Assembly (NCBI GenBank): GCA_965198115.1 | Contig: OZ240241.1 | Span: 416,001 to 480,000 of the forward strand | Length of the DNA stretch: 64,000 bases | Direction of reading: 5' to 3' | Origin: Candidatus Latescibacterota bacterium | Lineage (GTDB): Bacteria; Latescibacterota; UBA2968 | Shown here: in pieces, positions 420-18,833 of the stretch | Numbering within the stretch: position 1 is the first letter of the stretch | How the letters are laid out: each line of letters starts with the position of its first letter | The notes under the pieces: model-generated | Told to the model about the DNA's origin: nothing | What the model saw: only the letters and a program-made list of their open reading frames with translations | Databases searched by the model: none | Made by a program: the position numbers and the translations under genes

Positions 420-3400
420 ATGGAATTTGCCTCTCTTGACAGCCTCATAGAAACAGAGCGTAAGAGGTTCGACAGGCTCAACGCCCTGATCGACTCTGAA
501 GCGGATGCCTTCAAGATCGAAGACCCCGTTCAGCGTCAAAAGGTGAAGTCTGATGCGCTGACAAGCCGGTTGGCCAAAACCACGCCCGTCCGTGAAACCC
601 CCGAACTTGAAGACAACCTTTACGGCCGCGATGAGTTGCCGACACCGACACCGCCGAAACCCCAAGGCATCGGCGCGGAGTTCGTGAAAGGCGTCAAAGG
701 AGCAGCTACAGGCGGCATTCCGGCGATGGCGGGGTCCTCTATCCAGATGGGGGCAAGACAGCTCGAGGGTCTTTCTGAGCCCAAGACGTTCTTTGACTAC
801 GTCGCGAAAGCAGCCTTGACGGTGGCTTCTCCTGCTGTCAGCGGTGCTCTGTCCTTCACATCGAACGAGACCAAAAAGGCTGCCACAAACTGGCTCCGTG
901 AGGTCGGATCAAACATCCGGGAATATGGACGGAAACGACAGCTGGCAAACGCACCCGAAGTGACGCTCGCCGATGCGATCGAAAACCCCAGGAAGTTTGA
1001 CAGGTGGGCCGCCTACGCCTTGGGATCTGGCGGCGTCTACATGGCCCCGTCGATGGTGGGCTCCCTGATCTTCGGCCCTGCAGGGGCCATCCTGCCCTCC
1101 TACGCTCTGGCCCACGGCGAAATTTCCGATGAATTGATCGAGGAGGGAATTGAAGATCCCGCCTTTGCCGCTGCACTTGCGGTGCCGGTGGCCGGGCTCG
1201 ATGCGATCGGCGCCACTCGTGCCACAGCACCCGTGCGGAAAGAGGCCATCAAGCGCCTCATAAAAACCGGGATGACCAGGACGCCGTTGCGCGAGGTACT
1301 CGGGGGAGCAGGGACCGAGAGCGCAACCGAAGGCGGACAGGAACTGATGATGGCCATTGCCAACGGCCTCCGTGCGGACAAGAGCTGGGACACGATCTGG
1401 GAGGATGTGAAGGTCCGCGTGCCCGAGGGGATGGCGCAAGGCGGCTTGGTCGGCGGAACGATGACGGCGGGAACGACACTCGCCGGAAGGCTCCAGAAGG
1501 GTCAAGACCTGACCGACGAGCAGAAGACACAGCTTGAGGCCGACATCGAAGAACTGGTAGCCACCGAGCCGGTCGCCGAGCCTGAGCCGGTCGCCGAGCC
1601 TGAGCCGGTCGCCGAGCCTGAACCAGCCGAAGGTTCTCAGGTCCCCATCTTGGGTAGCCAAACCGTCATAGAGGAAATTCGCCGGGAGCTGACTGGGCGA
1701 CAAGACGTGATAAACCGCGCTACTGCTATGCTCGAATCCGGCAAGTCTGAGCGCACCGGCTACAAGCTGACGCCCAAGCAGATCAAGATGGCTGAAGAAA
1801 CGATTGAGGAGCAGAACAACCTGATAGAGGCGAAGCTGAAAGAAGTGGAGCGGGATTTCAACAAGGGCACCGCCGACAAGCTGAGAGCGGAACTTCAGTT
1901 TGAACCCAAAGCTGCCCCTCCAAAGAAGGCCACTGAGGAGGAGCCAGCTATCGAGGAGCCGGCTGCCGAACCCGCCGAGCAGCCGGCACGCTTGAGAGAT
2001 AAGTGGAAAAGCGATCTTCACCGCCTCGACGCGGAGATCCACGACCTTCAAGATGCGCGAGACGCCGTCGACGCGATGCCGGCTCGATGGGAAGATCTAC
2101 AGCCTCTGTGGAAAAAGCACGACAGTATTGAAAAGATGGTCGACGAAGCCAACGAGAAGGGACCCCTGGGTCGATCCGTCAGGATTGATCGAATCGAAAA
2201 GGCAATCACGGATCTCGCGGCCGGTATCGAGGATAGGAGAAGGCAACAGCAGTCTGAAGCCGCTGAGGAAGCGCCCGCCGATGCGCCCATCGTCCTTGAA
2301 GGTGCAGATGCTACCGAGCCCACCGCCACTGAGGAGCCCACCGCCGCAACCCCGACAAAATTGACCTCAGGCGCTTGGGTTGCTCGTGTCCAGAGCGCAA
2401 CCAGGCCCGAGCACGGTGACGAGCTCACGATCACCACACGGTCAGGAAAAACCTGGACCGCATACGTTCTTTCCGTTGAGAGTGTCACCCGCGACGGGGC
2501 GTTCGTCGTCTCCACCACAAAACAGCGTCCCATGCGTGCGATCGTCGTCCCAGAGGAGGAGCCTACCGCCACGGAGGAGCCTACCGCCACGGAGGAGCCC
2601 ACCGCCGTCGATGACATCCTCAAGACCTTCAACGACAAGTTCGTGAATATCCCCTGGGAGGACGCGGACCGGGTTCGACGCCTCATTGCAAAGGAGATTC
2701 CGGCCGAGGTTGCCGAGGACACCGCCTATCGCAACGTCCGGGAAAGCTCCGACATGCAGAACGCCTGGATCGAGCATGACGAAGCCCTGAAGCGCGTGAT
2801 GACGACGGACGTGCTCAACGACGACGTGCAACTCTACAAGGAGTTCACAGACAACGAGGGATTCCGGCAATGGCTCACGGATAAAGTTTTCGAGATGACC
2901 TATAAGCCTGCAAAATGGTCTTTCGAGCCCGTCTTCCCAGCAGCTACCGGCAGCGCCCTCAATGAGGACGCACCACCTACCGCGCCTGCCACTGAGGATG
3001 CGCCCACCGCTGCCGAACCTACCGCCCTTGATACGATGAAAAGCGAGCTTCAGCGCCTCGATAAGAAGATCCTCGACCTGCGAGGACCTGACACGACATC
3101 AGCTCTATGGGCAGAGCACGACAGGCTCCGAAAAAGAAAGACGGAGATTCAAAAGATGATCGAAAAAGCCCCAGGTATTCGGGGCCTGGGTCATGCCAAC
3201 ATGATCAATCGAATCGAAAAGGCAATCCAGGATCTCACGGTCGAGATCCGCAAGGCTGCACCCACCAAGCCGGCCGCCGAGCCCACCGCTGCCGAGGCGA
3301 TGACGGAGAAGTGGAAAGACGAGCTTATGCGCCTCGACGTGGCGATTCTCGACCTGGCTCGCGATGACGTTTCTGGCGTGACTGATCTACGGGCAGATCA

Positions 3401-3875
3401 CAGCAGGATTTTCGAGATGATCGAAAAGCTCCCAAAGGAGCAAGTCGAACAGGTAATCACGGATCTCGCAGCCTCGGTCGATGATCTTCAAAGACGCCAG
3501 CAGGCTACAGCAGAAGGGGAGCCCGCCGAGGCCGGCGAAGATGCACAGCCTACCACACCCACCGAGGAGCCCGCCGATGAACGAACACGCAAAGAAGGAG
3601 AACCTGATGGGGTTCGGGTGGATGGCGATGAACCACTGGGAGGAGTTTCTACCACGGATGTACAAGAAACTGAAGGAGGAGGGGACACTGATACAGAGGG
3701 CCTACGAGGCCCAGGAGATGACGACGGATCTGGTGATGCGTCTGACCGACAGGGGGAGGATGCAGATGCACGAGGCGAAGGAACTGGCCCTACCCGAGTG
3801 GATACTCCTGCCAGCAGAGAGCGAGAGCGACGACCTGCCATAAAGGGCGGACTTCACGGCCCCGGAGGGCTTTGA
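420..3875 (+). CDS. N-terminal part of a giant polyvalent (DarB-like/LPD-type) phage internal protein
   Basis: 1151 aa; Gly/Ala-rich hydrophobic N-terminal block typical of ejected virion proteins; modules separated by PEPVAE/PTATEE linkers; runs into a DarB-type MTase across a +1 frame break near 3845. Confidence 0.75.
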   Translation: MEFASLDSLIETERKRFDRLNALIDSEADAFKIEDPVQRQKVKSDALTSRLAKTTPVRETPELEDNLYGRDELPTPTPPKPQGIGAEFVKGVKGAATGGIPAMAGSSIQMGARQLEGLSEPKTFFDYVAKAALTVASPAVSGALSFTSNETKKAATNWLREVGSNIREYGRKRQLANAPEVTLADAIENPRKFDRWAAYALGSGGVYMAPSMVGSLIFGPAGAILPSYALAHGEISDELIEEGIEDPAFAAALAVPVAGLDAIGATRATAPVRKEAIKRLIKTGMTRTPLREVLGGAGTESATEGGQELMMAIANGLRADKSWDTIWEDVKVRVPEGMAQGGLVGGTMTAGTTLAGRLQKGQDLTDEQKTQLEADIEELVATEPVAEPEPVAEPEPVAEPEPAEGSQVPILGSQTVIEEIRRELTGRQDVINRATAMLESGKSERTGYKLTPKQIKMAEETIEEQNNLIEAKLKEVERDFNKGTADKLRAELQFEPKAAPPKKATEEEPAIEEPAAEPAEQPARLRDKWKSDLHRLDAEIHDLQDARDAVDAMPARWEDLQPLWKKHDSIEKMVDEANEKGPLGRSVRIDRIEKAITDLAAGIEDRRRQQQSEAAEEAPADAPIVLEGADATEPTATEEPTAATPTKLTSGAWVARVQSATRPEHGDELTITTRSGKTWTAYVLSVESVTRDGAFVVSTTKQRPMRAIVVPEEEPTATEEPTATEEPTAVDDILKTFNDKFVNIPWEDADRVRRLIAKEIPAEVAEDTAYRNVRESSDMQNAWIEHDEALKRVMTTDVLNDDVQLYKEFTDNEGFRQWLTDKVFEMTYKPAKWSFEPVFPAATGSALNEDAPPTAPATEDAPTAAEPTALDTMKSELQRLDKKILDLRGPDTTSALWAEHDRLRKRKTEIQKMIEKAPGIRGLGHANMINRIEKAIQDLTVEIRKAAPTKPAAEPTAAEAMTEKWKDELMRLDVAILDLARDDVSGVTDLRADHSRIFEMIEKLPKEQVEQVITDLAASVDDLQRRQQATAEGEPAEAGEDAQPTTPTEEPADERTRKEGEPDGVRVDGDEPLGGVSTTDVQETEGGGDTDTEGLRGPGDDDGSGDASDRQGEDADARGEGTGPTRVDTPASRERERRPAIKGGLHGPGGL
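1566..1619 (+). repeat. 18-bp tandem repeat x3 (EPVAEP linker)
   Basis: GAGCCGGTCGCCGAGCCT three times. Confidence 0.95.
2556..2606 (+). repeat. 18-bp tandem repeat x~3 (EEPTAT linker)
   Basis: GAGGAGCCTACCGCCACG repeats; related copies near 2316-2346, 2975-3027, 3279 and 3560. Confidence 0.9.
2607..2903 (+). other. Embedded domain resembling the C-terminal domain of Type I restriction subunit HsdR
   Basis: ILKTFNDKF.NI.W.DADRVR.LI..EIPA.VA.DTAY.N....SD.QNA.IEHD.AL.RVM....L.DD..LYK.F.DNE.FR.WLTD.VF..TY matches my recollection of the terminal ~100 aa of a widespread HsdR family. Confidence 0.75.
3577..3843 (+). CDS. Overprinted small protein (TnpV-like), +1 frame inside the giant gene
   Basis: GAGGAG 7 nt before ATG; 88 aa of globular composition (FGWMAMNHWEEFLPRMYKKLKEEGTL...AKELALPEWILLP), while the host frame is low-complexity G/D/E/R. 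Confidence 0.65.
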   Translation: MNEHAKKENLMGFGWMAMNHWEEFLPRMYKKLKEEGTLIQRAYEAQEMTTDLVMRLTDRGRMQMHEAKELALPEWILLPAESESDDLP

Positions 3876-5661
3876 GGCCGAGATCGAAAAGGGCGGGCAG
3901 AAAACCAAGTATCGCAAGAACGTGGCCGCCGTTAAACTCCTGAAGACGCTCGAAGCCGAAAATCGCGCCGCTACCCCAGCCGAAAAGGAGACATTGGCCC
4001 AATACACCGGCTGGGGCCACTCTCCCCAAGCGTTCGTTTATACCCTACAGGAGCGCGCCAGGCTGAGACAGCTGTTTCCCGAGGATCAGGCCGAAGGGAT
4101 TTTCGACCAGTGGAACAACGAAAAATGGGAGAAAGAACAGGCCGAGCTACAGGATCTCTTTACCGAAGATGAGTACACTTCGGCGCGGGACTCGATCGCC
4201 AATGCCCACTACACGAGCCTTCCGGTGATAAGGTGGATGTGGGATGCCACCCAAAGGTTCGGCTTCCAGGGCGGGAAGATTCTCGAACCGGGTCTTGGCA
4301 TCGGCAACTTCTTCTCGGTGATGCCATCAGGAGAGATGAGGGGGAAATCAAAACTCACCGGTATCGAGATGGACGACCTCTCCGGCCGCATTGCTCAAAA
4401 GCTCTACGAGCGGGCCGATGTGCGTATCTCCCCTTACCAGAAGACGCGGCTCCCCGACGGTTATTTCGACTTGGCCATTTCCAACGTTCCCTTTGCCGAT
4501 GTCCGAATTCAAGACAAGGCTTACAAGGAACAGCTGACCCTCCACAACTATTATTTCCGTAAGTCTTTGGACAAGGTGAGGCCGGGCGGGGTCGTGGCCT
4601 TTATCACGTCGCGCTTCACGATGGACGGTTCCAAAAATCAGGAATTCCGCCGTCGGATTTCTGAGGAGGCCGAGTTCATCGGCGCGATCCGGTTGCCCAA
4701 CACGGCCTTTAAGAAAAACGCCCACACAGAAGTCACGACCGATGTGATCTTTTTGCGCAAGCTCAACGCCGGCGAGGCCCCCACCGGAGAGAATTGGGTC
4801 GACCTTGTCGATAAGAAGATCAAAGACAAAGAAGGCCGACCGGTCGAAATGGCACTCAATTCCTACTACGACCGGCACCCCGATATGATGATGGGCCGCC
4901 TCACGGCCACAGGGTCGATGTATAGTGCGGGAGAACCCACCCTTGCCCCCTACGGCGATCTTGACAAGCTGATGGCAACGGCCCTTGAAAAGCTGCCCGA
5001 GAATGTAGTGGCTGGGCCCGAGTCGAGCCTGTCCAAGCCGGCTGAGGAGACCCTACTGGCCCCCGACAGCGTGCGAGAAGGGCAGTTCGTTGTCAACGAA
5101 AACGGGGATTTGACCCAGAATTCTAAGGGAAAGTTGGAAGCCTACAAGGCTCCCAACGATACTGCCGTCCTCCGCATCAAGGGGATGGACAGCATCAGGG
5201 CAAAGGTGCGCGACCTGCTTTTCTCCCAGACCGAAGGGATCGAGGAAGCCGATCTCAAGAAGAAGCAGGCGAACCTTCTTAAGACCTACAAGTCCTTTGC
5301 CAAGAAATACGGCCCCCTCAACAACGCGGTCAACAAGCGGCTGTTTTCCAGTGACCCCGATGTGGCGTTGCTTTCGTCCCTGGAAGTCATGGACTACGAT
5401 GAGTCTGGAAAGAATTTCGCAGAGATCGAGACCACCCCTCAGCAATCTTTGAAAGCCATACCTGAAGGAAAGAGGAACACTGAGTTGACGTCCATGGCGG
5501 GCGCGATGCGGAGTAGAGGGATGAGCGGGACAGAGATCGCCGCTGCACTTAACGTCGCAAATCGAGAGCGCTGCCAGCCTCCGCTACCGGATGAGGAAGT
5601 TCACTCTATAGCCCTCAGCATTGATCGCTACGAGGCCGGCTCGCCGGGGGAAGGAAGATAG
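3844..5661 (+). CDS. DarB-like N6-adenine DNA methyltransferase with C-terminal PriCT-1 domain (probable continuation of 420..3875)
   Basis: GGQKTKYRKNVAAVKLLK..ATPAEK..LAQYTGWG, NAHYT, motif I ILEPGLGIGNF, motif IV SNVPF, AIRLPN.AF; C-terminal IPEGKRNTEL..AGAMR..G...PPLPDEEV..IA.SI.RY. Confidence 0.85.
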   Translation, partial: RADFTAPEGFEAEIEKGGQKTKYRKNVAAVKLLKTLEAENRAATPAEKETLAQYTGWGHSPQAFVYTLQERARLRQLFPEDQAEGIFDQWNNEKWEKEQAELQDLFTEDEYTSARDSIANAHYTSLPVIRWMWDATQRFGFQGGKILEPGLGIGNFFSVMPSGEMRGKSKLTGIEMDDLSGRIAQKLYERADVRISPYQKTRLPDGYFDLAISNVPFADVRIQDKAYKEQLTLHNYYFRKSLDKVRPGGVVAFITSRFTMDGSKNQEFRRRISEEAEFIGAIRLPNTAFKKNAHTEVTTDVIFLRKLNAGEAPTGENWVDLVDKKIKDKEGRPVEMALNSYYDRHPDMMMGRLTATGSMYSAGEPTLAPYGDLDKLMATALEKLPENVVAGPESSLSKPAEETLLAPDSVREGQFVVNENGDLTQNSKGKLEAYKAPNDTAVLRIKGMDSIRAKVRDLLFSQTEGIEEADLKKKQANLLKTYKSFAKKYGPLNNAVNKRLFSSDPDVALLSSLEVMDYDESGKNFAEIETTPQQSLKAIPEGKRNTELTSMAGAMRSRGMSGTEIAAALNVANRERCQPPLPDEEVHSIALSIDRYEAGSPGEGR

Positions 5662-5664
5662 TTG

Positions 5665-5725
5665 ACCAGCTTTAGATCTGGTGGCCGAGAGGCCGTGGGG
5701 GTTCGAATCCCCCCCTTTCGCACCA
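5665..5725 (+). other. 3' half of tRNA-Leu(TAG): att-site remnant
   Basis: ACCAGCTTTAGATCTGGT, long variable arm GGCCGAGAGGCC, GGGGGTTCGAATCCCCC, ...CGCACCA; no 5' acceptor or D arm upstream. Confidence 0.85.
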
Positions 5726-5760
5726 ATTATAAACACCATAATACAGGACAGGAATTTACG

Positions 5761-5789
5761 GAAGGGCTCCCCGCTTTGAGGAGCCTTTC
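5761..5789 (+). terminator. GC hairpin downstream of the tRNA remnant
   Basis: GAAGGGCTCC...GGAGCCTTTC inverted repeat. Confidence 0.5.
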
Positions 5790-5937
5790 GTATTTGGCAG
5801 TAAAGTTCAGTGTCCATAGAAGTGTCCACGAGCCTACACGAAAACCCCAGTTTTCAGAGGGCCGTAGGGGGTAGCTCCCCCGCACGGCTCCGTCTCGCCG
5901 GCGGCCCTCGTAAACCCTCAGACGGGAGGGAAAAGCG

Positions 5938-6381
5938 ATGCTACCTGCGGAAGACTGGAATCGGCACAACCGTGAGCTCATCTCTCAGCCAACACCTGGC
6001 GCGCCCGCAGATTGCAACCAGTTGAGAGAGGATATCCTCTCAGGTTTGGAGAAGTTTCGTCGGTCGAGCATCGAGCCCTCGCCGCTTTGGACGGACGTGC
6101 CGTTCACCGAGGAGCTGTTTGCTGATCTTGACGAGGATGATGTTGACCTGTATCAGCGCTGTCTGTGCCCGGAGTATCTGCGAGTGAACGTCTACTTTAC
6201 TCTCTTAACGCTCGTCCTCTTCGTCAGCGAGCAGGCCATCGCCCACGGATCCCCTCAGCAGGTATCCGAGATCGTTGAGACACTCACCCGCCTTTCCAAG
6301 AAGCACAGCGGAGTTGGCCAAGTGCCCGTGGCCGGTTATCTTCTTTCTCTGCAGCAACGCTTGGACAGCGTATGTCGGTAG
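5938..6381 (+). CDS. Hypothetical island protein (may be frameshifted into the next ORF)
   Basis: 147 aa, GGGAGG upstream. Confidence 0.5.
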   Translation: MLPAEDWNRHNRELISQPTPGAPADCNQLREDILSGLEKFRRSSIEPSPLWTDVPFTEELFADLDEDDVDLYQRCLCPEYLRVNVYFTLLTLVLFVSEQAIAHGSPQQVSEIVETLTRLSKKHSGVGQVPVAGYLLSLQQRLDSVCR

Positions 6382-6388
6382 GGAATCC

Positions 6389-6874
6389 ATGCAGGCAATG
6401 AGGAAGGCCGAGGAAGCTGGGCTTGCGGTCGCCATCGAGCGGGCGACTGAACTCACGGCGGCCATCCACCGGATAATCCGATTCGTGTCGCCCGGCCACG
6501 TGCTGAACGATTTCCTTGGAGCGATTGATGCAGGCGATGAGAGCCTGCGACTCTGGAATGTTGTAGGAGAGAAGATCCAGGAACTCGGACTGAGAAGACC
6601 CCTCCAGGAGCTCGAGGACAGTATCGAACTAGAGTTGGGACGTCTCCAAGCAGAGCACAAAGAATGGGCTGAAAGGGTGTTCGGTGATCGACCGAGGCAG
6701 ATATCCTACTTGCCTCAGGACGTGTATCGTGCTTGCCAGGGCATCGCGGAAGCCTTTGAGCTTGGACGGGGATCTGACTATGGGACCCGCAAGGACGCTT
6801 GTGAATTGCTGACTCTTTGCGGAATCGGGATAGATGTCGACACACTTCGGAAGTGGCGTTCTCGGAACCCGTGA
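6389..6874 (+). CDS. Hypothetical island protein with possible C-terminal HTH
   Basis: Helical protein ending ...GIDVDTLRKWRSR. Confidence 0.5.
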   Translation: MQAMRKAEEAGLAVAIERATELTAAIHRIIRFVSPGHVLNDFLGAIDAGDESLRLWNVVGEKIQELGLRRPLQELEDSIELELGRLQAEHKEWAERVFGDRPRQISYLPQDVYRACQGIAEAFELGRGSDYGTRKDACELLTLCGIGIDVDTLRKWRSRNP

Positions 6875-6929: not shown

Positions 6930-9470
6930 TAGTGTCGTGTCCCGCGAATAAGTTTTAGAAGTCTGTTGAGTTTATCGAGGACCGAGTCAGCGGTTGCCGT
7001 CCACACGAAAGGCTTTGAGTTCTGATTGTATTGGTCTGTGAACTTCTGGATGCAGGTGATCAGATCCTTGACGTTCCGAAAGGTTCCTCGTCGGATTGCT
7101 CTTTGTGTGATGATGCCGAACCAGAGAGCTATAATCAAAAGGTGTGGAAAAAGAGAAAGGGCGACCCTACCCTTCCCGTGAGATAGTTGATTCACACAAA
7201 ACCGGGTGAGAGGCCCGGTTGGGAAGGAGGATCGCCGTGAAGGAACATACGCATAGAGCCCCATTGAAGTCCATGCCGACGTGGGAGACGGTTGACGATT
7301 GGATCCGTGAAGAGATCCAGAGCCGGTTCCAGTCCATTCTGGAGGAGGAGGCGACCGCGTTCTTGGGCCGGTCGTGGTATGAGCGCCGAGCCGAGGTCGA
7401 TAGCTCCAGGGGCTACAGGAACGGCTACGGCAAGCCCCGGCGTCTCTCGACGAGCTGCGGAACGATCAAGGTCCGGCGTCCCCGGGTTCGTGGTCTGGAA
7501 GAGCGGTTTGAAAGCCGCATCCTCCCCCTGTTCGCCCGGAGAACCAGGGCCATTGGAGATCTGCTTCCCGACCTTTATCTCCACGGTCTCTCCCAGGGCG
7601 ACTTCGAGTTGTCTTTGCGTGCGCTGCTCGGTGATGGCGCGCCGCTTTCGCCGACCTCGATCGCTCGTCTTCGAGGGAAGTGGGAGGTCGACTTCCAGGA
7701 CTGGAAAGAAAGGCGTCTGGATAATCGCGAACTGGTCTACGCCTGGGCTGATGGCATCTACGTCAAAGCCGGGCTCGAGCGCGAGAAGGCGTGTCTGCTG
7801 GTCGTGATCGGCGCGATGAGCGACGGCAGCAAGGAGATCCTGGCGATAGAACCCGGTTATCGAGAGTCTACAGAATCCTGGCTCACGGTGCTCCGGGATC
7901 TCCGGGATCGCGGGCTCGAACATCCTGTCCTGATCGCCGCGGACGGGAATATGGGCATCTGGGCGGCCGTTGATCAGGTCTGGCCAGAGAGCCGGCAACA
8001 ACGGTGCTGGAACCACAAGATCCTCAACGTGCTCGACAAGGTCGCCAAGCGTGCACAGGCTGAAGCCCGCGCACTGCTCGTCCAGATCCCCTATGCCGGC
8101 ACGAAAAAGGAGGCCGAGAAGCTCCGGAAACGCTTTGCCGCACGGTATCGCTCACAGTTCCCTGCCGCCGTGGAGACGCTCGAAAGAGACTGGGATCGGA
8201 TGGTCACGTTCTACGACTTCCCGAAGGAACACTGGAAACACCTGAGAACCACGAACGTCGTCGAGAGCCCCTTTGCTTCCGTTCGGCTTCGCACAAACGC
8301 CGCCAGGCGATTCAAGAAAGTCAGGAACGCCACGGCTCTCATCTGGCGTACGCTCAAGGTCGCAGAGAGCCGATTCAGGAAACTCACCGCGCCACACTTG
8401 CTACAACAAGTCTACGATCAGAAACACTCAACCGGACCGCAGGTCGAAACCGGGAAGATGGCCGCCTGATTTCTTTTACACACCTATTGACCTGAGCTCA
8501 CCAGATCTCTACCTGGTTTAGCCAGGAGGCATACGTTGGTGTGTAGTGCACGTGGTATCTTTTACGTGAGGTGAGCCAACGTTTGACGTTCTGGTGCTTG
8601 TGAGTGCCGTAGTTATCGACGACCAGATGGATGTCGAGATCCTTCGGGACGTTTTTGTCAATGTGCTTGAGGAACTGAAGGAACTCTCTGTTGCGATGTC
8701 TGGGCTTGCACTGAGTCAGGACTTTTCCTGATGCGATGTTGAGCGCCGCAAAGAGGGTAGTCGTGCCGTGCCGTGTATAGCTGTGAGTGACGCCCTCGAC
8801 ATACCCGAGGCCCAAAGGGAGAATCGGTTGCGTCCGTTCGAGTGCTTGAATCTGGCTCTTCTCGTCTATGCAGAGCACCATTGCGTTGTCCGGCGGGTTC
8901 AGGTATAAACCGACGATATCCCTGACTTTCTCGACGAAGAAGGGATCGTTCGACAGCTTGAAGTGCTTCTGCCGATGCGGCTGCAGTCCAAAGGCTCTCC
9001 ATACACGTTGCACTGTGGACTTTGAGAGGCCCGTCTCATCGGCCATCGCTCGACAGGTCCAGTGGGTGGCATTCTTCGGCTTCTTCTTGAGCGTCTTGTA
9101 GATGAGTGAGGAGATCTCTTCGTCGCTAACGGACCGCGGACCACCAGGACGTAACTCGTCATACAGTCCCATCAAGCCTTGCTCGCAGAAGCGACGGCGC
9201 CATTTGCCAACGGACGCTCCGGACAACCCGACTCGTTCGGCGATCTCCTGATTGGTCAGACCACCATCGCTCAGCAGGACGATCTTCGCCCGACGCACCA
9301 GAGCGTGAGGCATGCTGCGCGAACCGGACAACGACTGGAGTTGATCGCGGACTTCATCACTGATGTTCAGTGGTTGTAACGGACGACCTCTTGCCATCGG
9401 TTCCTCCTCACAATGAGTGCCTGAGGAACCTTACGACTGTATCACGAATTTTTCTAGTTATTCCTGAGAT
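6930..9470 (-). mobile_element. IS630-family element interrupted by IS256; left end truncated
   Basis: Transposase 9397->8500 plus 7125->6929 (CIDEKSQIQAL, VVDNYGTHK, WLNQVEIW|FGII); removing IS256 and one ACCAGA restores the frame. Confidence 0.9.
7126..8499 (+). mobile_element. IS256-family element A, copy 1 (transposase ~7219..8469)
   Basis: WADGIY, ADG, QRCWNH, RTTNVVES motifs; imperfect IRs GAGCTATAATCAAAAGGTGTG / GAGCTCAGGTCAATAGGTGTG; 6-bp duplication ACCAGA. Confidence 0.95.
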
Positions 9471-9840
9471 GGGTTACAACACCCGGAAGCTCGTTGAGAT
9501 TAAGTCCAGCTGAGTCTGTCAGCGACCGGTTACCTTCGTTTTTCCTTGAGCCGAGTTTCTCTTCGGGATCAGGTAGCCAATGAGAGTCGATAGAGTTTCA
9601 GAAGGTTGTGTGTGAGACAGATCAGGTTCCATTCTCTGATGACTTTGTGGATTCGGCGGAATGAGAATCGGGTGAAGTTCCGAACGGATTTGATCTGTCC
9701 AAACACGGGTTCGATGATCTGTTTTCTTTTCCAGTAGGTGCAGCGACCTTTCTGTGTGAGAAGCTTTCTCGCCATTTTGTCTTTCGTCGTTGCGCCCTTG
9801 GGGATCCGTCCCCTGGGGCAGGTCGCGATGGGCGTTCCAT
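9471..9840 (-). mobile_element. IS1182-family 3' fragment
   Basis: Near-identical to ~42340-42705; RKQIIEPVFGQIK motif. Confidence 0.9.
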
Positions 9841-10046
9841 TGTGGCGACGACAAAACAGAAACGGGGTGCGGGAGGAAGCTGTAAACCGCCTCAAGGAGG
9901 CGGGGATAACAGCGTCGGCGAGGATGGTCGATGCGGCGCTCCGCGCCCGGACGAGCGACGGTGAGGACAATGGGCAGGGACAACGTCTTCTGCTCACCGA
10001 CCCCGAGCCGTGGGACGGCCCCGTGGACGGTGCTGACTTGATAGAT
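9841..10046 (+). pseudogene. Fragment of a satellite-type primase/DUF3631-like protein
   Basis: GQGQRLLLTDPEPWDGPVDGADLID motif; cut by IS on both sides. Confidence 0.55.
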
Positions 10047-11466
10047 GGCTATATCCGGATCTCTCAACGAGATGAAGTGGGTGAAGGTGCCGTGGTTCCT
10101 GGCATGGGGGCGCGGTTAGAGTGTGCGGAACCTCTTCGGAATCTGCTCAGGGATGTTTATGTCTCCGACGGTAAGGAAGATCATATCGTTGAATGCGTCG
10201 AGTGTGCGGAATCCGCTGGCTCGGTTCTTGACGATTTGGACGATTCGGTTGAGGCCTTCGGCGATGGCGTTGGTAAGACGCGTGTTCACGAATGCGAGGA
10301 CGCCGAAGAAGTGCTGTCGCAGGGTCCTGACGAACTTTCGCAGGGGTTCAAGTCGACTTCTGAGTGCGGACGTCGTCCAGCATTTCAGGAAGCGTTCGGC
10401 AGCCCAGGGCGCTTTGTATTCCCAGAACTGCTCGAACTCGTCCTTGAGTCTCCAGGCTCTATAGATTCGGTAGTTCGCCTTCTCCAGTGCTTTGAGTGTC
10501 CGAGTATCCCCTCTGGAGCGTGTCGCTGAGTGCCGGTAGAGGAGCCATCGGAGGCCCTTCATGGCTTTGCGCTCATCCGGGGCAGCTTTACGCCACTGGT
10601 CCTTACGGACCTCGTCAACGGCGGCATTGAGAGCCTTGACGATGTGAAAGCGATCGAGGACCAGCTTGGCATTCGGACAGTGTTCCTGGATGGCTCCGAT
10701 GTAAGCTTCGCTCATGTCGCAGCAGGCCCACTCGATCTTGGATCTCTGGTAGGGACTGAGAGCCTCTGTGAAGAACCGATCGATCGTTTTACGCGCCCTG
10801 CCGCGGCCAACCCACACCACGCAGGAGCGGTCCAGATCGTAAACGAGCGTGGCGTACCTGTGACGCTTGGCGTAGGAGATCTCGTCGATCCCGATGGTTT
10901 TGAGCCCTCGGATACGATGACCTTCACGAAGCCGCGTGATGGATCGGTGAAGGAGATCCGACAGCGTCGAGGCAGAGATGCGCAGTAACTCGGACGCCGC
11001 CTTCTGCGTCATGGTCTGGCAGTAGCGCAGCATGGCATACTCGAAGCGATACGTCACCCGAGAGAACCGCTCCGCCCACGGAATCTCCTCGACCACACGA
11101 CCGTGGGTAGGACACCGAATCTCCCGAGGATGGTAGAGAAGCCAGACCCTCCACCCGCACACCGGAATGTCACGCCACCGACGCGGATGGGGCATTGTGC
11201 GGACGATTTTACCTCGACGGCCGCACTCCGGACAACAACAACCATTCTTATGTGGCTTTACGGCGATGACGAAGCAGCTTCTCCCCTCAAACCACCAGCT
11301 GACAACACGGAACCCCTTGAATCTCAGCAGTTTCGATAGTAATCTGCTCCCGGTCATAGGTCGCACCCCCTTCGCTTTGATTGTCCTACACACACAACCA
11401 AGCGTAGGGAACGATCTATGACCTTGTCATTCTATAGTTTCACCGTTGAGAAACCCGGATAGAGCC
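10047..11466 (-). mobile_element. ISL3-family element (transposase 10116..11393)
   Basis: Zn finger CPECG...CPTHG, IGIDE, CCDM, LDRFH, TNAIAEGLN; IRs GGCTCTATCCGGGTTTCTCAACG / GGCTATATCCGGATCTCTCAACG. Confidence 0.97.
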
Positions 11467-11471
11467 TTATT

Positions 11472-12898
11472 GGCTATATCTGGATCTCTCAACGAGCTGA
11501 AGTGGGTGAAGGTGCCGTGGTTCCTGGCATGGGGGCGCGGTTAGCGTGTGCGGAACCTCTTCGGAATCTGCTCAGGGATGTTTATGTCTCCGACGGTAAG
11601 GAAGATCATATCGTTGAATGCGTCGAGTGTGCGGAATCCGCTGGCTCGGTTCTTGACGATTTGGACGATTCGGTTGAGGCCTTCGGCGATGGCGTTGGTA
11701 AGACGCGTGTTCACGAATGCGAGGACGCCGAAGAAGTGCTGTCGCAGGGTCCTGACGAACTTTCGCAGGGGTTCAAGTCGACTTCTGAGTGCGGACGTCG
11801 TCCAGCATTTCAGGAAGCGTTCGGCAGCCCAGGGCGCTTTGTATTCCCAGAACTGCTCGAACTCGTCCTTGAGTCTCCAGGCTCTATAGATTCGGTAGTT
11901 CGCCTTCTCCAGTGCTTTGAGTGTCCGAGTATCCCCTCTGGAGCGTGTCGCTGAGTGCCGGTAGAGGAGCCATCGGAGGCCCTTCATGGCTTTGCGCTCA
12001 TCCGGGGCAGCTTTACGCCACTGGTCCTTACGGACCTCGTCAACGGCGGCATTGAGAGCCTTGACGATGTGAAAGCGATCGAGGACCAGCTTGGCATTCG
12101 GACAGTGTTCCTGGATGGCTCCGATGTAAGCTTCAAGCTTCGCTCATGTCGCAGCAGGCCCACTCGATCTTGGATCTCCGGTAGGGACTGAGAGCCTCTG
12201 TGAAGAACCGATCGATCGTTTTACGCGCCCTGCCGCGGCCAACCCACACCACGCAGGAGCGGTCCAGATCGTAAACGAGCGTGGCGTACCTGTGACGCTT
12301 GGCGTAGGAGATCTCGTCGATCCCGATGGTTTTGAGCCCTCGGATACGATGACCTTCACGAAGCCGCGTGATGGATCGGTGAAGGAGATCCGACAGCGTC
12401 GAGGCAGAGATGCGCAGCAACTCGGACGCCGCCTTCTGCGTCATGGTCTGGCAGTAGCGCAGCATGGCATACTCGAAGCGATACGTCACCCGAGAGAACC
12501 GCTCCGCCCACGGAATCTCCTCGACCACACGACCGTGGGTAGGACACCGAATCTCCCGAGGATGGTAGAGAAGCCAGACCCTCCACCCGCACACCGGAAT
12601 GTCACGCCACCGACGCGGATGGGGCATTGTGCGGACGATTTTACCTCGACGGCCGCACTCCGGACAACAACAACCATTCTTATGTGGCTTTACGGCGATG
12701 ACGAAGCAGCTTCTCCCCTCAAACCACCAGCTGACAACACGGAACCCCTTGAATCTCAGCAGTTTCGATAGTAATCTGCTCCCGGTCATAGGTCGCACCC
12801 CCTTCGCTTTGATTGTCCTACACACACAACCAAGCGTAGGGAACGATCTATGACCTTGTCATTCTATAGTTTCACCGTTGAGAAACCCGGATAGAGCC
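11472..12898 (-). mobile_element. ISL3 tandem copy; transposase frameshifted by a 7-bp duplication
   Basis: Same element after 5-bp spacer TTATT; AAGCTTC duplicated at 12128-12141. Confidence 0.95.
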
Positions 12899-12899
12899 T

Positions 12900-13134
12900 A
12901 AAAAAAGCGCTCGCTGATTTCGAGTTCAACGCGCTCGGACAGCTTGAAAAGGCGGCCAAGTTAGATCCGCGATCGTGGACGGCCCTTGCGTGGATCCTCG
13001 AGCGCCGATTCAATCACTGGCGGCGACCAGCGGATCGAGTGTCAATGGAACAATCGGGCACGATCACACTCGCCCAGATAGTGAAGGCTGCAGCGGATCG
13101 GCGTGAGCGCGAGGGACTTGCTTCGAAGAGATGA
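12900..13134 (+). pseudogene. C-terminal fragment of a terminase-small-subunit-like protein
   Basis: Own translation: KKALADFEFNALGQLEKAAKLDPRSWTALAWILERRFNHWRRP...* (W.A.AW.LERR motif); 5' end lost at ISL3. Confidence 0.6.
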
Positions 13135-13269
13135 GAGAGAGTGATTCATCGTAGCGTGGAAACTAACCGCATGTCAACCGTATCGAGCGATCGGATGCTA
13201 CGGAAGAACACGCGCCACTCCCAGACAAATCCATAGACTCCGCCCAGGAGAAAACCATGATTGCAAAGT

Positions 13270-13316
13270 TGGTGGGCCCAGCAGGACTCGAACCTGCGAC
13301 CGATCGATGATGAGTC
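13270..13316 (-). other. 3' half of a CAT-anticodon tRNA (Ile2/Met): att-site remnant
   Basis: Reverse complement GACTCATCATCGATCGGTCGCAGGTTCGAGTCCTGCTGGGCCCACCA; no 5' half. Confidence 0.8.
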
Positions 13317-13683
13317 ACTATCCGGTGCCTTCCACTTTGCATCGGTTTATCCGGGTTTACCCAGGTTTGTTCCAAGAGGTCACCGTGATATGCGCCCTAT
13401 GTCATAACACGTTGTCCACTAAATAGTTGTCCTCCAAGTATCGGGGATGGACACTTTTTGGACACCTTGGGCGGACGGGTTGGTTGAGCCATTTGGACTG
13501 TCCACCGTCCACGATCTCCAGGTAAAGGGTTCTTTGTACATCAGCTTGACAGGTGTTTACAATGTCAATCCGTCTGATTTGGCCAGAACTCACTCTATGA
13601 ATGGGTTTTCTCTATTTACGTGTCGGTGTGCGCGTTACAATCTGGGAGAGCTCTTCCGATTTCTTTACGCATAACCGGGTTCG

Positions 13684-14523
13684 ATGAAACTCAAGAACAA
13701 ACATTTCGAGGCAATCGAGCAGATCGTGGCCTGTCAAATTGAGGGCGACGGCATCTCGGAGATGGCACGTCGTTGTGCGGTGTCACGCCAGACGATCTAC
13801 AGCTGGCTGCGCGATTCAGCCTTTCGGGAGGTGCTCGATCAGCGTCGTGCCCTGTGGGATCGCGACATCGGCCAAATCAGGTTGACGCGCCGAAGGGCAA
13901 GGATTGAGGATTTGGCTGCGATCGCCGAGGATCCGGCGACGAATGACTCGATCAAGCTGCGGGCTTTGAAGCAGATAGCCGATGAGACGGCCGCTGACGT
14001 GGAGGGGATGTTGGAAGCCCTGCAGGAGCAAATTGATCTTCTCGAGCGCCAGATCGCCGGTGAGGTCGGGTTGGCCCTTCACCGTCCAGAAGGCAAAAGT
14101 CCGATGAAACTCAAGAACAAACATTTCGAGTCGATCGAGCAGATCGTGGCCTGTCAAATTGAGGGCGACGGCATCTCGGAGATGGCACGTCGTTGTGCGG
14201 TGTCACGCCAGACGATCTACAGATGGCTGCGCGATTCAGCCTTTCGTCAGGTGCTCAATCAGCGTCGTGCCCTGTGGGATCGCGACATCGGCCAAATCAG
14301 GTTGACGCACCGAAGGGCAAGGATTGAGGATTTGGCTGCGATCGCCGAGGATCCGGCGACGAATAACTCGATCAAGCTGCGGGCTTTGAAGCAGATCGCC
14401 GATGAGACGGCCGCTGACGTTGAGGGGACGATCGAGTCCCTGCAGGAGCGAATTGATCTTCTCGAGCGCCAGATCGTCGGTGAGGTCGGGTTGGCCCTTC
14501 ACCGTCCAGAAGGCAAAAGCACA
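13684..14523 (+). repeat. 420-bp in-frame tandem duplication of an HTH (phBC6A51/terminase-small-like) gene
   Basis: Units 13684-14103 and 14104-14523 are highly similar; ISEMARRCAVSRQTIY.WL.D..F HTH. Confidence 0.85.
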
Positions 14524-15368
14524 ATCCGTGGTCACGGTTGGTCGGGGAAGCGGAAGCTTACTATCCGACGCTCGCTCGTGACGGTGCGGCGGACACGGGC
14601 TATGAGGTGTGCGGGTCGATGGTCGTCGCCGTTAATGCGGCTGAGAGGGACACTTTCGAAGAGGCGAGCGTGGGTGTGGTGCGGGGGGATGGACGCGGCG
14701 ACAAGGCCGCCGTCGTGGATGGCGCGCGTGCTGGAGCAGTCGGGCGTGGCTCACGGGCTCGAGGTGCGGCGCGCTTCCGTCGATCGTGTCGAGGTCGAAG
14801 GTGGGACAGCGACAGCGGTTGTCGCGGACGGTGAGGAGCTGACCACGGGGCTCCGTCGTCATCGCCGGGGGGCGTGGTCTAACGCGTTTGGCGAGCAACT
14901 CGGGGTTCGTCTCCCGGTCGGGCCGATGCGGGGGCAGATCGCGCATCTGGATCTTGGGGAGACGGATACATCGGGCTGGGTCATCGTGAGCGGGTTTCGC
15001 GGTCACTACCTGGTACCGTGGGACGACAATCGTGTGGTTGCCGGTGCGACACGGGAGATGGATGCGGGCTATCGGGTCGAGACGACGGTCGAGGGGATGC
15101 TCGAGGTGTTGTCCGAAGCGATCCGGGTCGCCCCCGGTCTCCGAGGAGCTCGGGTGAAAAGGAGTTTCGCGTCGGACTGCGGCCGGCGACGTCCGACGGC
15201 TTTCCCATCATCGGCGTCATCCCCGACGCAGCGAATGTGCACGTGGCGACGGGTCACGGCCCGATGGGGCTCCACCTGGGACCCTACAGCGGAAAGGTTG
15301 TGGCCGATGCGATTCTCGGCGAGAGAGACGAGACTTTTGCCGTGTTTGGAGTCGAACGATTCGGTTGA
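14524..15368 (+). pseudogene. Degraded FAD-dependent oxidoreductase (ThiO/DadA-like)
   Basis: GAWS, PMRGQI, GLRPATSDGFPIIG, VATGHGPMGLHLGPYSG in different frames; N-terminus missing. Confidence 0.85.
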
Positions 15369-15467
15369 TGCGACGAGACAGCTACTGAGGACACAGAGGT
15401 GATGGAACAAAGTTCCAATGACCACCGCGGTACCAAGGTCTTTGACGTAGCAAAGTGAGGTGAAGTG

Positions 15468-15510
15468 ATGGAGTACCGAAAACTCGGGCGAAGTGGGGTG
15501 AAGGTTTCGG
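15468..15510 (+). pseudogene. First ~14 codons of an aldo/keto reductase
   Basis: MEYRKLGRSGVKVS after GAGGTG. Confidence 0.6.
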
Positions 15511-15630
15511 GTGGATCATCGAACGTCACGGCTACAAGACGCCCTGAACAGGCTAGAAACGCACTCACGGCGACTCGAAAGGCCGCCTGAATACACTCAC
15601 CCGAGTGTCCAGACAACCGCGGGCTTTACA
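15511..15630 (+). mobile_element. IS3/IS481-like 3' end remnant
   Basis: WIIERHGYKTP integrase-core tail and terminal TGTCCAGACAACCGCGGGCTTTACA. Confidence 0.5.
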
Positions 15631-15993
15631 CTCCTGCTGTGCGGTCTCGGGATTCGCGCGACCCGGCTAAGGACGCCGAACCCGTCCGGCAGGTACCGCA
15701 TGGGAGGGTGTCCAGAATCTTTCACATAGTGAGAGCGGCAACCCTCGGTCTGCGTGATGACGCCGCCGAAGCGTCATGGCGACGTCGAGGGCGAGGAGAC
15801 GTCGGTAGGAAGGACTCGTCGCGCTCGAGCGTCGACGCCGACGCCTCCGCGAATTAAGAGCGGATCCTTGAACACACGTCCGGAGCCAGGGGATTGCACA
15901 ACCGGTCTTTTCTACAATCGTCCGGGTGTCCTCCGACACGGAGCTGCTCAGGGCGCAGCACGCGACTTGCCCGCGGATCGGTCGCGGTCTAGA

Positions 15994-16881
15994 TCAGCCG
16001 CCGAACACGTGCCTGACGGTGAACAGCAGCGTCCAGTAACGCGTGCCGGTAAACGTGTCGGTGTGGGTGAAGTTCGGGTCCAGAGCGTGGGCCGAGTGCA
16101 GCTGGTATCCGCCGGTGTATTCGATGTCGGCGAGCATCGAGTACGTCAGCTTCGCGCCCAACGCGGTCCGTTCGTTCAGGCCGAAGTCGGTCCCGGCGTG
16201 CAGGTGCCCGGCCAGCACGGTGTCGGAGAAATCGGCGTCCAGGCGGGCGTTGTAGGACGACAGGGGCGGGTCGTGGGCGGCGCCGTTTCCTGCCGTATCC
16301 AGGTACTCATCGGTGAAGCGCACCCCATGGATGTCGACGAATGCGGGTCCCACCCCGCCGCCAACGTAGGGGGAAAACCCGGATGCCGCATCGCGGAAGT
16401 CGTAGTACGCGTTGAACGCGAGGATACGGACGGCAAGGTCGTCAATCGAGGACTCTGTATGCGAGGTGACCGCAGTGTTTTGCCGATCCTCCATCGCTAT
16501 ACCCTCGAGCGTGGTGACGCTGCGAAACATCTGATCGATGTCGTTCCTACGTTGTGCGAACAACAGCTCGAGGCGTGCGCGGTTGAGGATGAACCCGGTC
16601 GAGAGCTCGAACATGGCGCCCGCCCCGGCATCGAGGTCGTAGCCCCAGCGGTATCCGGATACTTCGGGACGGGGGTCTTCGTCGAAGCAGGCGTCCGTCG
16701 GATAGCACAGCGGATCCCGGTTGAAACCCGTCTGGTTGATGTCGGAAGCCCAGTTCGCCCCACCGCCGCTGCCGACGTACCAACCGGACCGCCGCGTGCC
16801 GCTCTGAGCCGACGCGTCCGAGACGGAACAGAGTACCAGGATGCCACCCAGGACTGGTGCAACAAGTGATGCAATACGCAT
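15994..16881 (-). CDS. Outer-membrane beta-barrel protein with signal peptide
   Basis: Signal peptide ...ASAQ, GWYVG, FNAYYDF, FSPYVGGGVG, aromatic C-terminal strand; GGAGG RBS. Confidence 0.8.
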   Translation of the reverse strand: MRIASLVAPVLGGILVLCSVSDASAQSGTRRSGWYVGSGGGANWASDINQTGFNRDPLCYPTDACFDEDPRPEVSGYRWGYDLDAGAGAMFELSTGFILNRARLELLFAQRRNDIDQMFRSVTTLEGIAMEDRQNTAVTSHTESSIDDLAVRILAFNAYYDFRDAASGFSPYVGGGVGPAFVDIHGVRFTDEYLDTAGNGAAHDPPLSSYNARLDADFSDTVLAGHLHAGTDFGLNERTALGAKLTYSMLADIEYTGGYQLHSAHALDPNFTHTDTFTGTRYWTLLFTVRHVFGG

Positions 16882-16965
16882 GAATATCCTCCGCAGGGTC
16901 GTGAAGAAAACCGGATGACTCCTATCGCATCGGCCTGGCGGGCATCCGGTGTCCCGTGTCGGTCG

Positions 16966-17310
16966 TCACGTGGGAAAAGGCAACCAGACGCTTACGTGGC
17001 CCCATCCGATCGGCGAACGCGGCCACTTGCTCATCGCGATCGGCCACGAGCGGCGCCTTGACGACTCGGACGCCTCTTGCGCCGTGATCAGAATCTCATC
17101 ACCCTCGCACCAGTCCAGCCCGCGCAGGACCGTTTGGAACGCTTCGCTCACCCCTCGAGTCAACGCAAGGTCCCCAGGGCCCACACTCAGGAAGCTCGCA
17201 ATCCGGTCGATCGACGCGGTCCGTCTGGGCATCTCCTCGTCGGGATAGGCGATGTGCATCGGCCCGCGCGTCGTCAGTTCTTCCATCAGGGCGGCGTGGG
17301 CGTCTGCCAC
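16966..17310 (-). pseudogene. Aminotransferase class V / cysteine desulfurase fragment
   Basis: IASFLSVGPGDLALTRGVSEAFQTVLRGLDWCEGDEILIT. Confidence 0.7.
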
Positions 17311-17710
17311 CGGCCGTGGCGTGATATCTGTTATAAGTTACTTATAATAATAGACTTATTATCTGCCATACCAACCTTGATGGTGATGACATCGTCGATC
17401 ACGGGTCGGCGCTGGTGTGATTTGGGTAAGGACGAGGGCATTACATCGCTGCGGCGACCGATACTCAGCAAGATAACCCTCGTCAGATGGGGGCTGCAAA
17501 CAAAGCAGCTGTTGCGTCTGCCACCGATTACGAAGACCAGCATTCGAGATATAGAAGAGTGGTCGTCTAAGACAGGCTCTCTCGTCCAAGATCTTTAAAA
17601 GGCGGTTTTCTGGAGCGAGTGTCAGGTAGTTCGATACACAACGAAACGCGTACCTGAAAGCTCCCGCTGGCATACAACTCTATTGTACCATCCCAGTCTG
17701 ACTTCAGTTC

Positions 17711-17767
17711 CCGTAATCCACTCCATCAGCCACGCTTGCCCACCGTTCCCCACTTCGTATCTTGGGT
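17711..17767 (+). promoter_or_regulatory. Orphan copy of the sensor-kinase promoter/leader seen at 55766-55827
   Basis: CCGTAATCC.CTCCATCAGCC..GCTTGCCC.CCGTTCC...ATCTTGGGT shared; TTGCCC-16-TATCTT. Confidence 0.6.
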
Positions 17768-18360
17768 TGACCTGCCCCCATCTATGTGTCCACATCCAGA
17801 GTTAGGATATGGCTGCGGTGAGCGGTTTGGTGACCGCTTCAGGTGCAGGTGGGCGATAGCCCAATGAGCTGTGTGGTCTGATGTGATTGTACTGCCAGCG
17901 CCACCACTTGGTCAACACCCTAGCCTCCTCCAAGGTCGTGAAGATCTCACCGTTGAGTAGCTCGTCTCTGAGCTTCCCGTTGAAGCTCTCGATGTATCCG
18001 TTCTCCCACGGGCTGCCCGGCTCGATGAACAAAGTTCCGACCTCCAACCTCGAGAGCCAGTCCCGAACCGCTTTGGCTACAAACTCCGGCCCGTTATCCG
18101 ATCTGATGTGTTTCGGGACACCATACCTCAGCATCAGCTTCGCCAACGTCCGCAGAACGTCCCGTGATGTTTGCTTGCGAGCGACCTCGATGGTCAGGCA
18201 CTCACGCGTGTATTCATCCACGACTGTCAGGAACTTCAACGGCCTCCCTTCACGTGTGCGATCGAACACGAAGTCGTAGGCCCAGACGTGGTTACGATGC
18301 TCGGGTCTGAGTCTGATGCAGGAGCCGTCGTTGAGCCAAAGTCGACCCCGCGCCCTTTGA
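17768..18360 (-). mobile_element. IS3-family 3' half (integrase core and IRR)
   Basis: WAYDFVFD, RSDNGPEF, PGSPWENGYIESFNG, YNHIRPHSSLGY; end TGACCTGCCCCC. Confidence 0.92.
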
Positions 18361-18371
18361 CGGGAGGACCG

Positions 18372-18759
18372 ATGAAGCTCACCGAAAAGCATCGAATGCG
18401 CGGGGGTGTGTGCCAGGTTGGAATTAGCAGGCCAGGGCTCGAAAACTATGGCTCGAGAGTGTGGGGTTTCGCGGCAGACGATATACAACTGGTGCAAAAT
18501 CCCCGAGTTTTTGGCTGAAAAACTCCGTCGTAAAGCGGTTTTCCGGGTTGACTTGTCCGATATTCCGCTCACGCATCGCCGGAATCGCATCGAGCTCCTC
18601 GCCGGGATTGCGAACGACGCCGGCGAGAGGTCGGGAGATCGGATTCGTGCGGTGAGGGCTATCGCGGATGAGGCGGCGGCCGACGTGGAGGGGATGATCG
18701 AGTCGCTCCAGGAGCAGATCGACCTTTTCGAGCGCCAGATGGCTGGCGACATGTCGTGA
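18372..18759 (+). CDS. Third, diverged HTH/terminase-small-like paralog (frameshift near 5' end)
   Basis: GGAGG + MKLTEKH..., MARECGVSRQTIYNW, IADEAAADVEGMIESLQEQIDL shared with the 13684 units. Confidence 0.7.
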
Positions 18760-18833
18760 CACGTTGCTGACCATCAATCAAGAGCCATCGAGTGAAGGAT
18801 ACTACTTGGCGATGCAGGTTTCCGGAAATAAAA

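Follow-up and report, generated by a model that had tools for sequence, protein, structure and literature searches.

Comparative evidence for a TnpV-type gene embedded in the +1 frame of DarB-like methyltransferase-helicase genes, with a broken copy in a Latescibacterota genome

Comparative sequence analysis indicates that a real, widespread and under-annotated TnpV-type gene is embedded inside the genes for DarB-like polyvalent proteins and that the copy in the stretch of DNA analyzed here is broken. This stretch (the window) comprises 64,000 nucleotides from a Candidatus Latescibacterota bacterium (GenBank assembly GCA_965198115.1, contig OZ240241.1, positions 416,001 to 480,000 of the forward strand). 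Our main reading, to which we give a probability of roughly 0.5, is that of a nested +1 gene in the DarB-like linker whose four-helix TnpV-type product likely binds the methyltransferase (MTase)-helicase as a chaperone or brake. Full same-strand nesting of a gene of 80 to 120 codons is rare in prokaryotes. In the openly available literature, including the main text of PMC5512222, we found no description of a TnpV-type gene nested in DarB-like genes, and the accessible text of PMC9815147, PMC3158075, PMC9144972, PMC11437467, PMC10782964, PMC12810830, and bioRxiv 10.1101/2025.01.04.631326 does not describe it.

The original prediction placed in the window an 88-aa ORF with its own Shine-Dalgarno (SD) sequence, in the +1 frame of a giant gene whose own frame is low-complexity filler at this point, and the coordinates, frame, and SD all agree with what we found (Table 1). 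The small ORF lies wholly inside the host ORF, whose last ~100 codons form an acidic/Gly linker reading across it; over the overlap, the host frame consists of 88% G/D/E/R/A/P/S/T and 9% hydrophobic residues. The pairing energy of the SD is −8.1 kcal/mol. This SD was further thought to be supplied by a linker repeat: the GAGGAG is indeed contained in the repeat GAGGAGCCC (EEP), which recurs at 2331 and 2592, but dependence on the repeat is ruled out because a different purine run serves two paralogous fragments of the same genome (C1:7497690 and C1:8410878). The nested ORFs of these fragments are 66% identical to the window copy, and the dN/dS of the window ORF against its paralogue is 0.61 (one pair). 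The small protein has homologs, with 231 matches at E ≤ 0.001 in a 50%-cluster protein library, the nearest of which are 69 to 79% identical, and we regard the ORF as almost certainly a real gene in its family. Single-protein queries against viral contigs recovered no related loci, and a first alignment (A1) had no match in 40 related genomes; a second (A2) matched 4 among 167 further genomes from the phylum. Longer fused forms of the small protein numbered 0 among 7,993 candidates, a count that carries little weight. Apparent remnants (L005 to L011) in four genomes that belong to the same class also contain family members; of these, L008/L011 has two tandem copies, one with a C-terminal extension and host-frame stops.

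Table 1. Features of the window surrounding the nested gene
Feature	Position	Strand	Details
DarB-like polyvalent host gene, N-terminal half	420..3875	+	1,151 aa; ends early by frameshift
Shine-Dalgarno GAGGAG of nested gene	3564..3569	+	7 nt 5' of ATG; Glu-Glu in host frame
Nested TnpV-like gene	3577..3843	+	88 aa; ATG 3577, TAA 3843; predicted helices 12-24, 26-35, 38-58, 64-75
Frameshift site	3841..3855	+	2 nt shorter than in two paralogous fragments
DarB-like LPD36 + adenine methyltransferase remnant	3844..5400	+	GWG 4009, AHYTS 4204, LEPGxGxG 4282, NVPF 4483
PriCT-1 primase C-terminal piece	5452..5661	+	in-frame join to truncated MTase
tRNA-Leu 3' piece, att-like junction	5666..5725	+	bounds remnant

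The host gene in the window is a frameshifted and truncated remnant in a decayed island. In both paralogous fragments, the linker runs into the MTase in one continuous host frame. The prediction that the nested gene stands just before the MTase holds in that the MTase lies directly 3' of it, but the host frame of the window stops at 3875 and never reaches the MTase, which follows in the frame of the nested ORF, after its TAA, because the window copy lacks 2 nt near 3849 that both paralogues have. Logan contigs from runs X1 and X2, which stem from one sample that may be the source of the assembly, cover 2774 to 3927 without gaps, and the break is therefore in the DNA. No RNA data set was among the listed carriers of the sequence. 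The MTase remnant matches phrog_10089 (E = 1e-154) and is cut after ~520 residues, before the helicase; relatives read into an SNF2 helicase at the point where the window MTase joins PriCT-1, and no intact helicase half was found in this genome. The other boundary of the remnant is a whole tRNA-Leu ~300 bases upstream of the window. With its host gene dead in this genome, the small ORF, though intact, has probably been orphaned. Fragments of the giant are dispersed over C1 (at ~14.8 kb, 19.5 kb, and 1.014, 1.133, 7.479, 7.498, 7.747, and 8.411 Mb), positions 1739 to 1832 of the window repeat sequence just upstream of the window, and positions 5666 to 6500 are 98% identical to a stretch beginning inside another tRNA-Leu. 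After the remnant, positions 7200 to 20800 hold a dense set of whole and broken transposase-like ORFs (identified by eye), several of them duplicated.

The kinship with TnpV that had been suggested from a residue pattern holds at the level of distant homology. The Pfam TnpV profile (PF14198) finds the window protein at 14.9 bits (E = 0.026), below the gathering cutoff of 27, but profile-to-profile comparison by HHalign of the window family with full-score TnpVs of Firmicutes upholds the relationship (97.4%; E = 1.4e-11; 70 columns). Within the family, 42 of 96 members match PF14198 at E ≤ 0.01, and two pass its cutoff (P0068, 32.9 bits; P0151, 28 bits). Judged from these profiles, the window protein is a distant TnpV homologue that falls outside Pfam membership. 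AlphaFold models it as four helices (pLDDT, 90.7), whereas the model of a Firmicute TnpV additionally has an N-terminal beta-hairpin (strands 9 to 13 and 16 to 20). The window family is net acidic (median charge, −3; window protein, −6). The near-invariant H-W of the window subfamily is Y-L in the Firmicute TnpV, which argues against catalysis, and no set of catalytic residues is conserved in sequence across the subfamilies. A sequence search of the PDB returned only designed helical repeats, Foldseek gave no match in the PDB at E ≤ 0.001, and neither an Xis nor an Ulx structure was among the matches listed in the structure comparison.

We surveyed the distribution of the arrangement from both directions. 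The forward survey comprised 160 loci retrieved with the MTase as the only query, namely the best 80 among 570 viral matches and the best 80 among 595 genome matches, which were scanned in all six frames with a profile made from alignment A2, which holds no sequence of these loci; 7 loci with too little upstream DNA were left out, and a match was counted if it scored ≥12 bits, was nested in +1, and lay upstream of the MTase. Within this sample (best 80 of 570 plus best 80 of 595), 130 of the 153 informative loci had such a match (71 of 79 viral and 59 of 74 genome loci), and an iterated profile brought the count to 136 of 153 at 20 bits; matches by frame numbered 133 in +1, 2 in-frame, and 0 in +2 or antisense, and the +1 match was not nested in only 3 of ~140 loci. 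As the surveyed loci are related, the counts overstate independence; by MTase cluster, the first profile matched 101 of 120 (90% identity), 44 of 57 (70%), and 22 of 25 (60%) of the same best-80-of-570 and best-80-of-595 sample. In the reverse survey, metagenome loci were fetched by the small protein, and the host frame was stop-free in 35 of 35, with the MTase in the host frame in all 31 loci with enough downstream DNA, though these loci appear largely to represent one clade. The supposition that the arrangement is common upstream of DarB-like MTases is thus borne out in both surveys. It extends to Firmicute TnpVs of full score (105 to 135 bits), which were nested in +1 of SNF2 MTase-helicase genes in each of the six cases tested.

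Among the 11 isolate phages that we fetched, VvAW1, Atu_ph08, SopranoGao, PEp14, and PBC5 scored >100 bits each with the iterated profile, and weaker scores were obtained for Bcep22 (23.7 bits), JC1 (19.2 bits), and Gerry (9.6 bits); Y7 has a 98-aa +1 ORF without a profile score, BKO1-TP3 has an unrelated 87-aa +1 ORF, and P1 darB has no nested gene. In VvAW1, the nested gene closes the virion gene cluster. The records of nine of these phages (VvAW1, Atu_ph08, SopranoGao, PEp14, PBC5, Bcep22, JC1, Gerry, and Y7) hold no separate CDS for the nested gene; some plasmid records do annotate nested copies. In PBC5 (L188, near 2050 to 2130), the N-terminal part of the giant reads in frame into the small ORF, which makes up the last part of orf33, and the MTase has an annotation of its own. 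This layout looks like the result of a single indel relative to the usual arrangement, possibly an error in the record, and we did not accept it as a natural fusion; a match to phrog_938 (“endolysin”) and the sole BFVD match (Q8W6J4) were set aside, both probably reflecting PBC5 orf33. In one genome bin (L157), the small protein is fused in frame to the MTase-helicase, which may reflect either a genuine deletion or an indel in the assembly. Three short hosts (L108, L128, and L173) have QLDLF or QLDFF and a Pro-rich linker but no nested ORF, representing either a natural loss or a state before nesting. Elsewhere (L043:6588-6929 and its group, L055:2100-2411, L177, and L191), +1 ORFs of 56 to 114 aa without detectable TnpV-type similarity lie just 5' of the MTase and are either very diverged or independent nested genes.

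The supposed dual coding is supported by the selection acting on the two frames. Over 33 disjoint pairs, dN/dS is 0.22 for the nested gene, 1.72 for the host frame over the overlap, and 0.12 for the MTase; protein identity is 78% for the nested product versus 60% for the host product and is higher for the nested product in 33 of 33 pairs. Upon synonymous recoding of 113 nonredundant ORFs, which were by definition nested, the host frame would be expected to be open in only ~8. The nested frame is under purifying selection, and the host frame is open. Third codon positions of the nested gene are 52% G and 6% T, versus 30 and 17% in the MTase, and this G-rich, T-poor usage accounts for the G/D/E/A-rich host linker. 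The frame equivalent to the host frame has 4, 14, and 3 stops in three free-standing TnpVs and none in either of two nested ones. Start signals are likewise enriched: the median SD pairing of 79 single-candidate nested starts is −6.0 versus −2.4 for 6,274 control +1 ATGs, with a strong median in viral loci (−6.6) and a weak one in genome loci (−3.4). From the contrast in selection and the stops in free-standing TnpVs, we infer that the small gene is probably the older frame and that the linker of the giant was overprinted on it. Hence, of the idea of an overprinted nested gene, the dual coding stands, but the direction is probably reversed.

In the short ICE-type hosts (L098 to L143 and L194 to L228), the host ATG usually lies ~58 to 82 nt before the nested ATG and opens a frame that encodes QL[DS]LF ~10 codons before the nested start. 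A relaxed form of this pattern, which was chosen after inspection of these same loci, was present upstream of the MTase in 42 of 52 short hosts versus 10 of 101 long ones in the forward survey (best 80 of 570 plus best 80 of 595); it appears 52 times in the 141,203 residues that precede the MTase and 0 times in the 310,310 that follow. The motif is also present in 25 of the 35 reverse-survey loci and is absent from the window giant. QLDLF is given as the consensus clamp-binding motif in the available text of bioRxiv 10.1101/2025.01.04.631326, and we regard the QL[DS]LF of the short hosts as a putative clamp-binding motif. We take the host frame to be in use even in the short forms.

These observations could be accommodated as follows. 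N-terminal modules, a clamp-type motif in the short ICE forms and kilo-residue domains in the phage forms, would have become joined to the MTase such that the host frame ran across an older small gene. Internal initiation on the mRNA of the giant would yield the small four-helix protein, which, made from the same mRNA, would bind the MTase-helicase in the producing cell and serve as its chaperone or brake up to the point at which the enzyme is sent out along with phage or conjugative DNA. We rate this binding, with the chaperoning or restraining of the enzyme in the producing cell, at a little below even odds. A partner role is favored, on indirect grounds, because the MTase-helicase is the one constant neighbor in virion clusters and conjugative elements and because the small protein is net acidic and helical, without a catalytic set conserved across subfamilies. 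Its presence with the enzyme in both virion- and conjugation-delivered elements makes the enzyme, not the delivery machine, the common factor. Against a strict requirement stand P1 and the three short hosts without a nested gene. Free-standing TnpVs have no MTase in the flanks fetched, and therefore the protein may also act without the enzyme in cis. More tentatively still, and as a possibility that we hold to be the lesser one, the DarB-like MTase-helicases of phages, plasmids, and ICEs might be two-component systems whose TnpV/DUF1896-fold subunit, hidden in the first gene, controls the enzyme; the ICE forms would dock via the N-terminal QL[DS]LF on the host sliding clamp and mark newly copied incoming DNA, and the free TnpV of satellite IMEs would act on the enzyme of a helper.

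Several other roles need to be weighed against that of an enzyme partner. The small protein might be a delivery adaptor or a co-delivered factor, a functional stand-in for Ulx that accompanies the giant or helps to load it into a capsid or secretion system. This would fit the joint action of Ulx and DarB in P1, as reported in the accessible part of PMC12810830, and the complementary pattern in which P1 has Ulx and no nested ORF while the Bcep22-like phages, for which the available text of PMC9144972 gives no known Ulx homologue, have the ORF. As the family shows no similarity to Ulx (HHalign, 0.6%) and a single small fold would need to work with capsids as well as with conjugation machines, we consider this possible but doubtful. 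An independent early effector, such as an inhibitor of host defense nested for the sake of coexpression or coinheritance, would likewise be small, acidic, and helical, could explain the free-standing copies, and might be exchanged for the unrelated ORFs that fill the same slot elsewhere; such a role is unlikely, given that the position just before the MTase is fixed across very distant elements and that a probable remote relative (DUF1896) also lies directly upstream of the MTase (one locus). Slightly less likely again is an excisionase-like recombination helper, as postulated for Tn4451, with the nesting a historical accident. An Xis homology of TnpV is cited as a postulate in the accessible text of PMC3158075, that of PMC9815147 labels TnpV a transposase of IMEs, and the gene for one free-standing TnpV shares 4 nt with a recombinase gene. 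This role is hard to reconcile with nesting inside the MTase-helicase gene in 130 of 153 loci (best 80 of 570 plus best 80 of 595) or with the VvAW1 copy that ends a virion gene cluster. Moreover, the TnpV-type models are helical bundles and the proteins net acidic, whereas Xis is a basic winged-helix protein.

The two remaining alternatives concern whether the ORF is a separate gene at all. Stop readthrough or frameshifting could yield a TnpV-MTase fusion, an idea suggested by the window, where the frame of the TAA continues into the MTase, and by the fused locus L157. This is very improbable: both paralogues have the 2 nt whose loss gave the window its layout, a fusion is seen at only 1 of 153 loci (best 80 of 570 plus best 80 of 595), and the host frame of short hosts starts upstream at an ATG of its own and carries a conserved motif there. 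That the ORF is a noncoding shadow of a low-complexity linker could be argued from the subthreshold Pfam score and from the tendency of acidic Gly-rich codons to leave other frames open; we give it next to no credence, as it is contradicted by the dN/dS of 0.22 and the higher identity than that of the host in 33 of 33 pairs, as well as by the confident fold, the SD enrichment, and the free-standing homologues.

The consequences of the nesting reach beyond the window, which holds only a fossil of the system. Phages, plasmids, and ICEs from many phyla have retained the nesting, and the isolate phage records that we checked overlook it; a deletion or tag in the linker of the giant would strike a second gene. 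The orphan TnpV family gains a testable context, which suggests that the labels “transposase” and “excisionase” are wrong, and the nested gene becomes a candidate for the accessory factor lacking so far in Bcep22-like phages. The clamp-type motif, for its part, points to a way in which methylase-helicases carried by ICEs may locate incoming DNA that has just been replicated.

The system can be placed beside several known ones. With the DarB-type dyad of an MTase and a SWI2/SNF2 helicase, as set out in the main text of Iyer et al. 2017 (PMC5512222), the window host shares the LPD36-type GWG, the gamma-class adenine MTase motifs (the SAM-binding motif and NVPF), and the phrog_10089 match, but the window copy carries a frameshift and no longer has the C-terminal SF2 helicase, which is present in relatives; that main text, to which our comparison was confined, has no mention of TnpV, DUF1896, an overlap, or a frameshift. 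P1 DarB differs from the hosts of the family in being without a nested gene. P1 also encodes Ulx, a small protein made with darB and needed for the antirestriction effect of DarB according to the accessible part of PMC12810830; Ulx shows no similarity to the window family (HHalign, 0.6%), and ulx stands on its own 3' of darB, in contrast to the nested gene of the window. The TnpVs of Tn4451-type mobilizable elements are homologous, and their full-score Firmicute relatives are also nested in +1; the window protein differs in scoring below the cutoff and in the absence of the N-terminal beta-hairpin, and its gene is nested in an MTase-helicase gene, whereas the Tn4451-type tnpV is free-standing beside a recombinase gene (compare L178, with a serine recombinase). 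Free-standing TnpVs of mobilizable elements had no MTase within the 2.5- to 3-kb flanks fetched, and one adjoins a recombinase. IMEs and CIMEs with their own TnpV insert preferentially in an snf2 gene (available text of PMC9815147), which is probably the type of gene that hosts the nested TnpV.

A non-nested counterpart may exist in Bacteroidales. The top hit among 48,161 chains for the window model was 2APL (Z = 6.4, rmsd = 2.2, 62 aligned), and it was also the top hit for the Firmicute TnpV model (Z = 6.2, rmsd = 2.0, 60 aligned), tied there with unrelated entries; both Z scores are middling and of a size often seen among helical bundles. We take 2APL (PG0816) to be a structure of DUF1896 (PF08989). 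The PF08989 profile matched neither the window protein nor its 96 relatives nor the genome, and the HHalign similarity of DUF1896 to the family was at the level of shuffled sequences. At one Parabacteroides locus (NZ_OY725834.1, 4658 to 5110; L192/L193), a DUF1896 gene lies between topB and an MTase gene of the family and overlaps the first codons of the latter by ~11 nt. DUF1896 of Bacteroidales conjugative transposons, a separate adjacent 150-aa gene, may thus be the non-nested counterpart of the nested gene, a parallel that we draw only weakly.

The closest formal precedent is the phage spanin gene Rz1, which lies wholly inside Rz on the same strand (as described in the accessible text of PMC9144972). 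Here too, at the level of the family, an inner ORF lies wholly inside an open outer frame, and both are kept by selection; the outer frame of the window copy stays open over the inner ORF but breaks just after it. The encoded proteins are unrelated to the spanins, and in the present case the inner gene is folded and constrained, while the outer frame is a floppy linker. The nested TnpV-like arrangement, known here from sequence and with a putative interaction between its two products, spans phages, plasmids, and ICEs.
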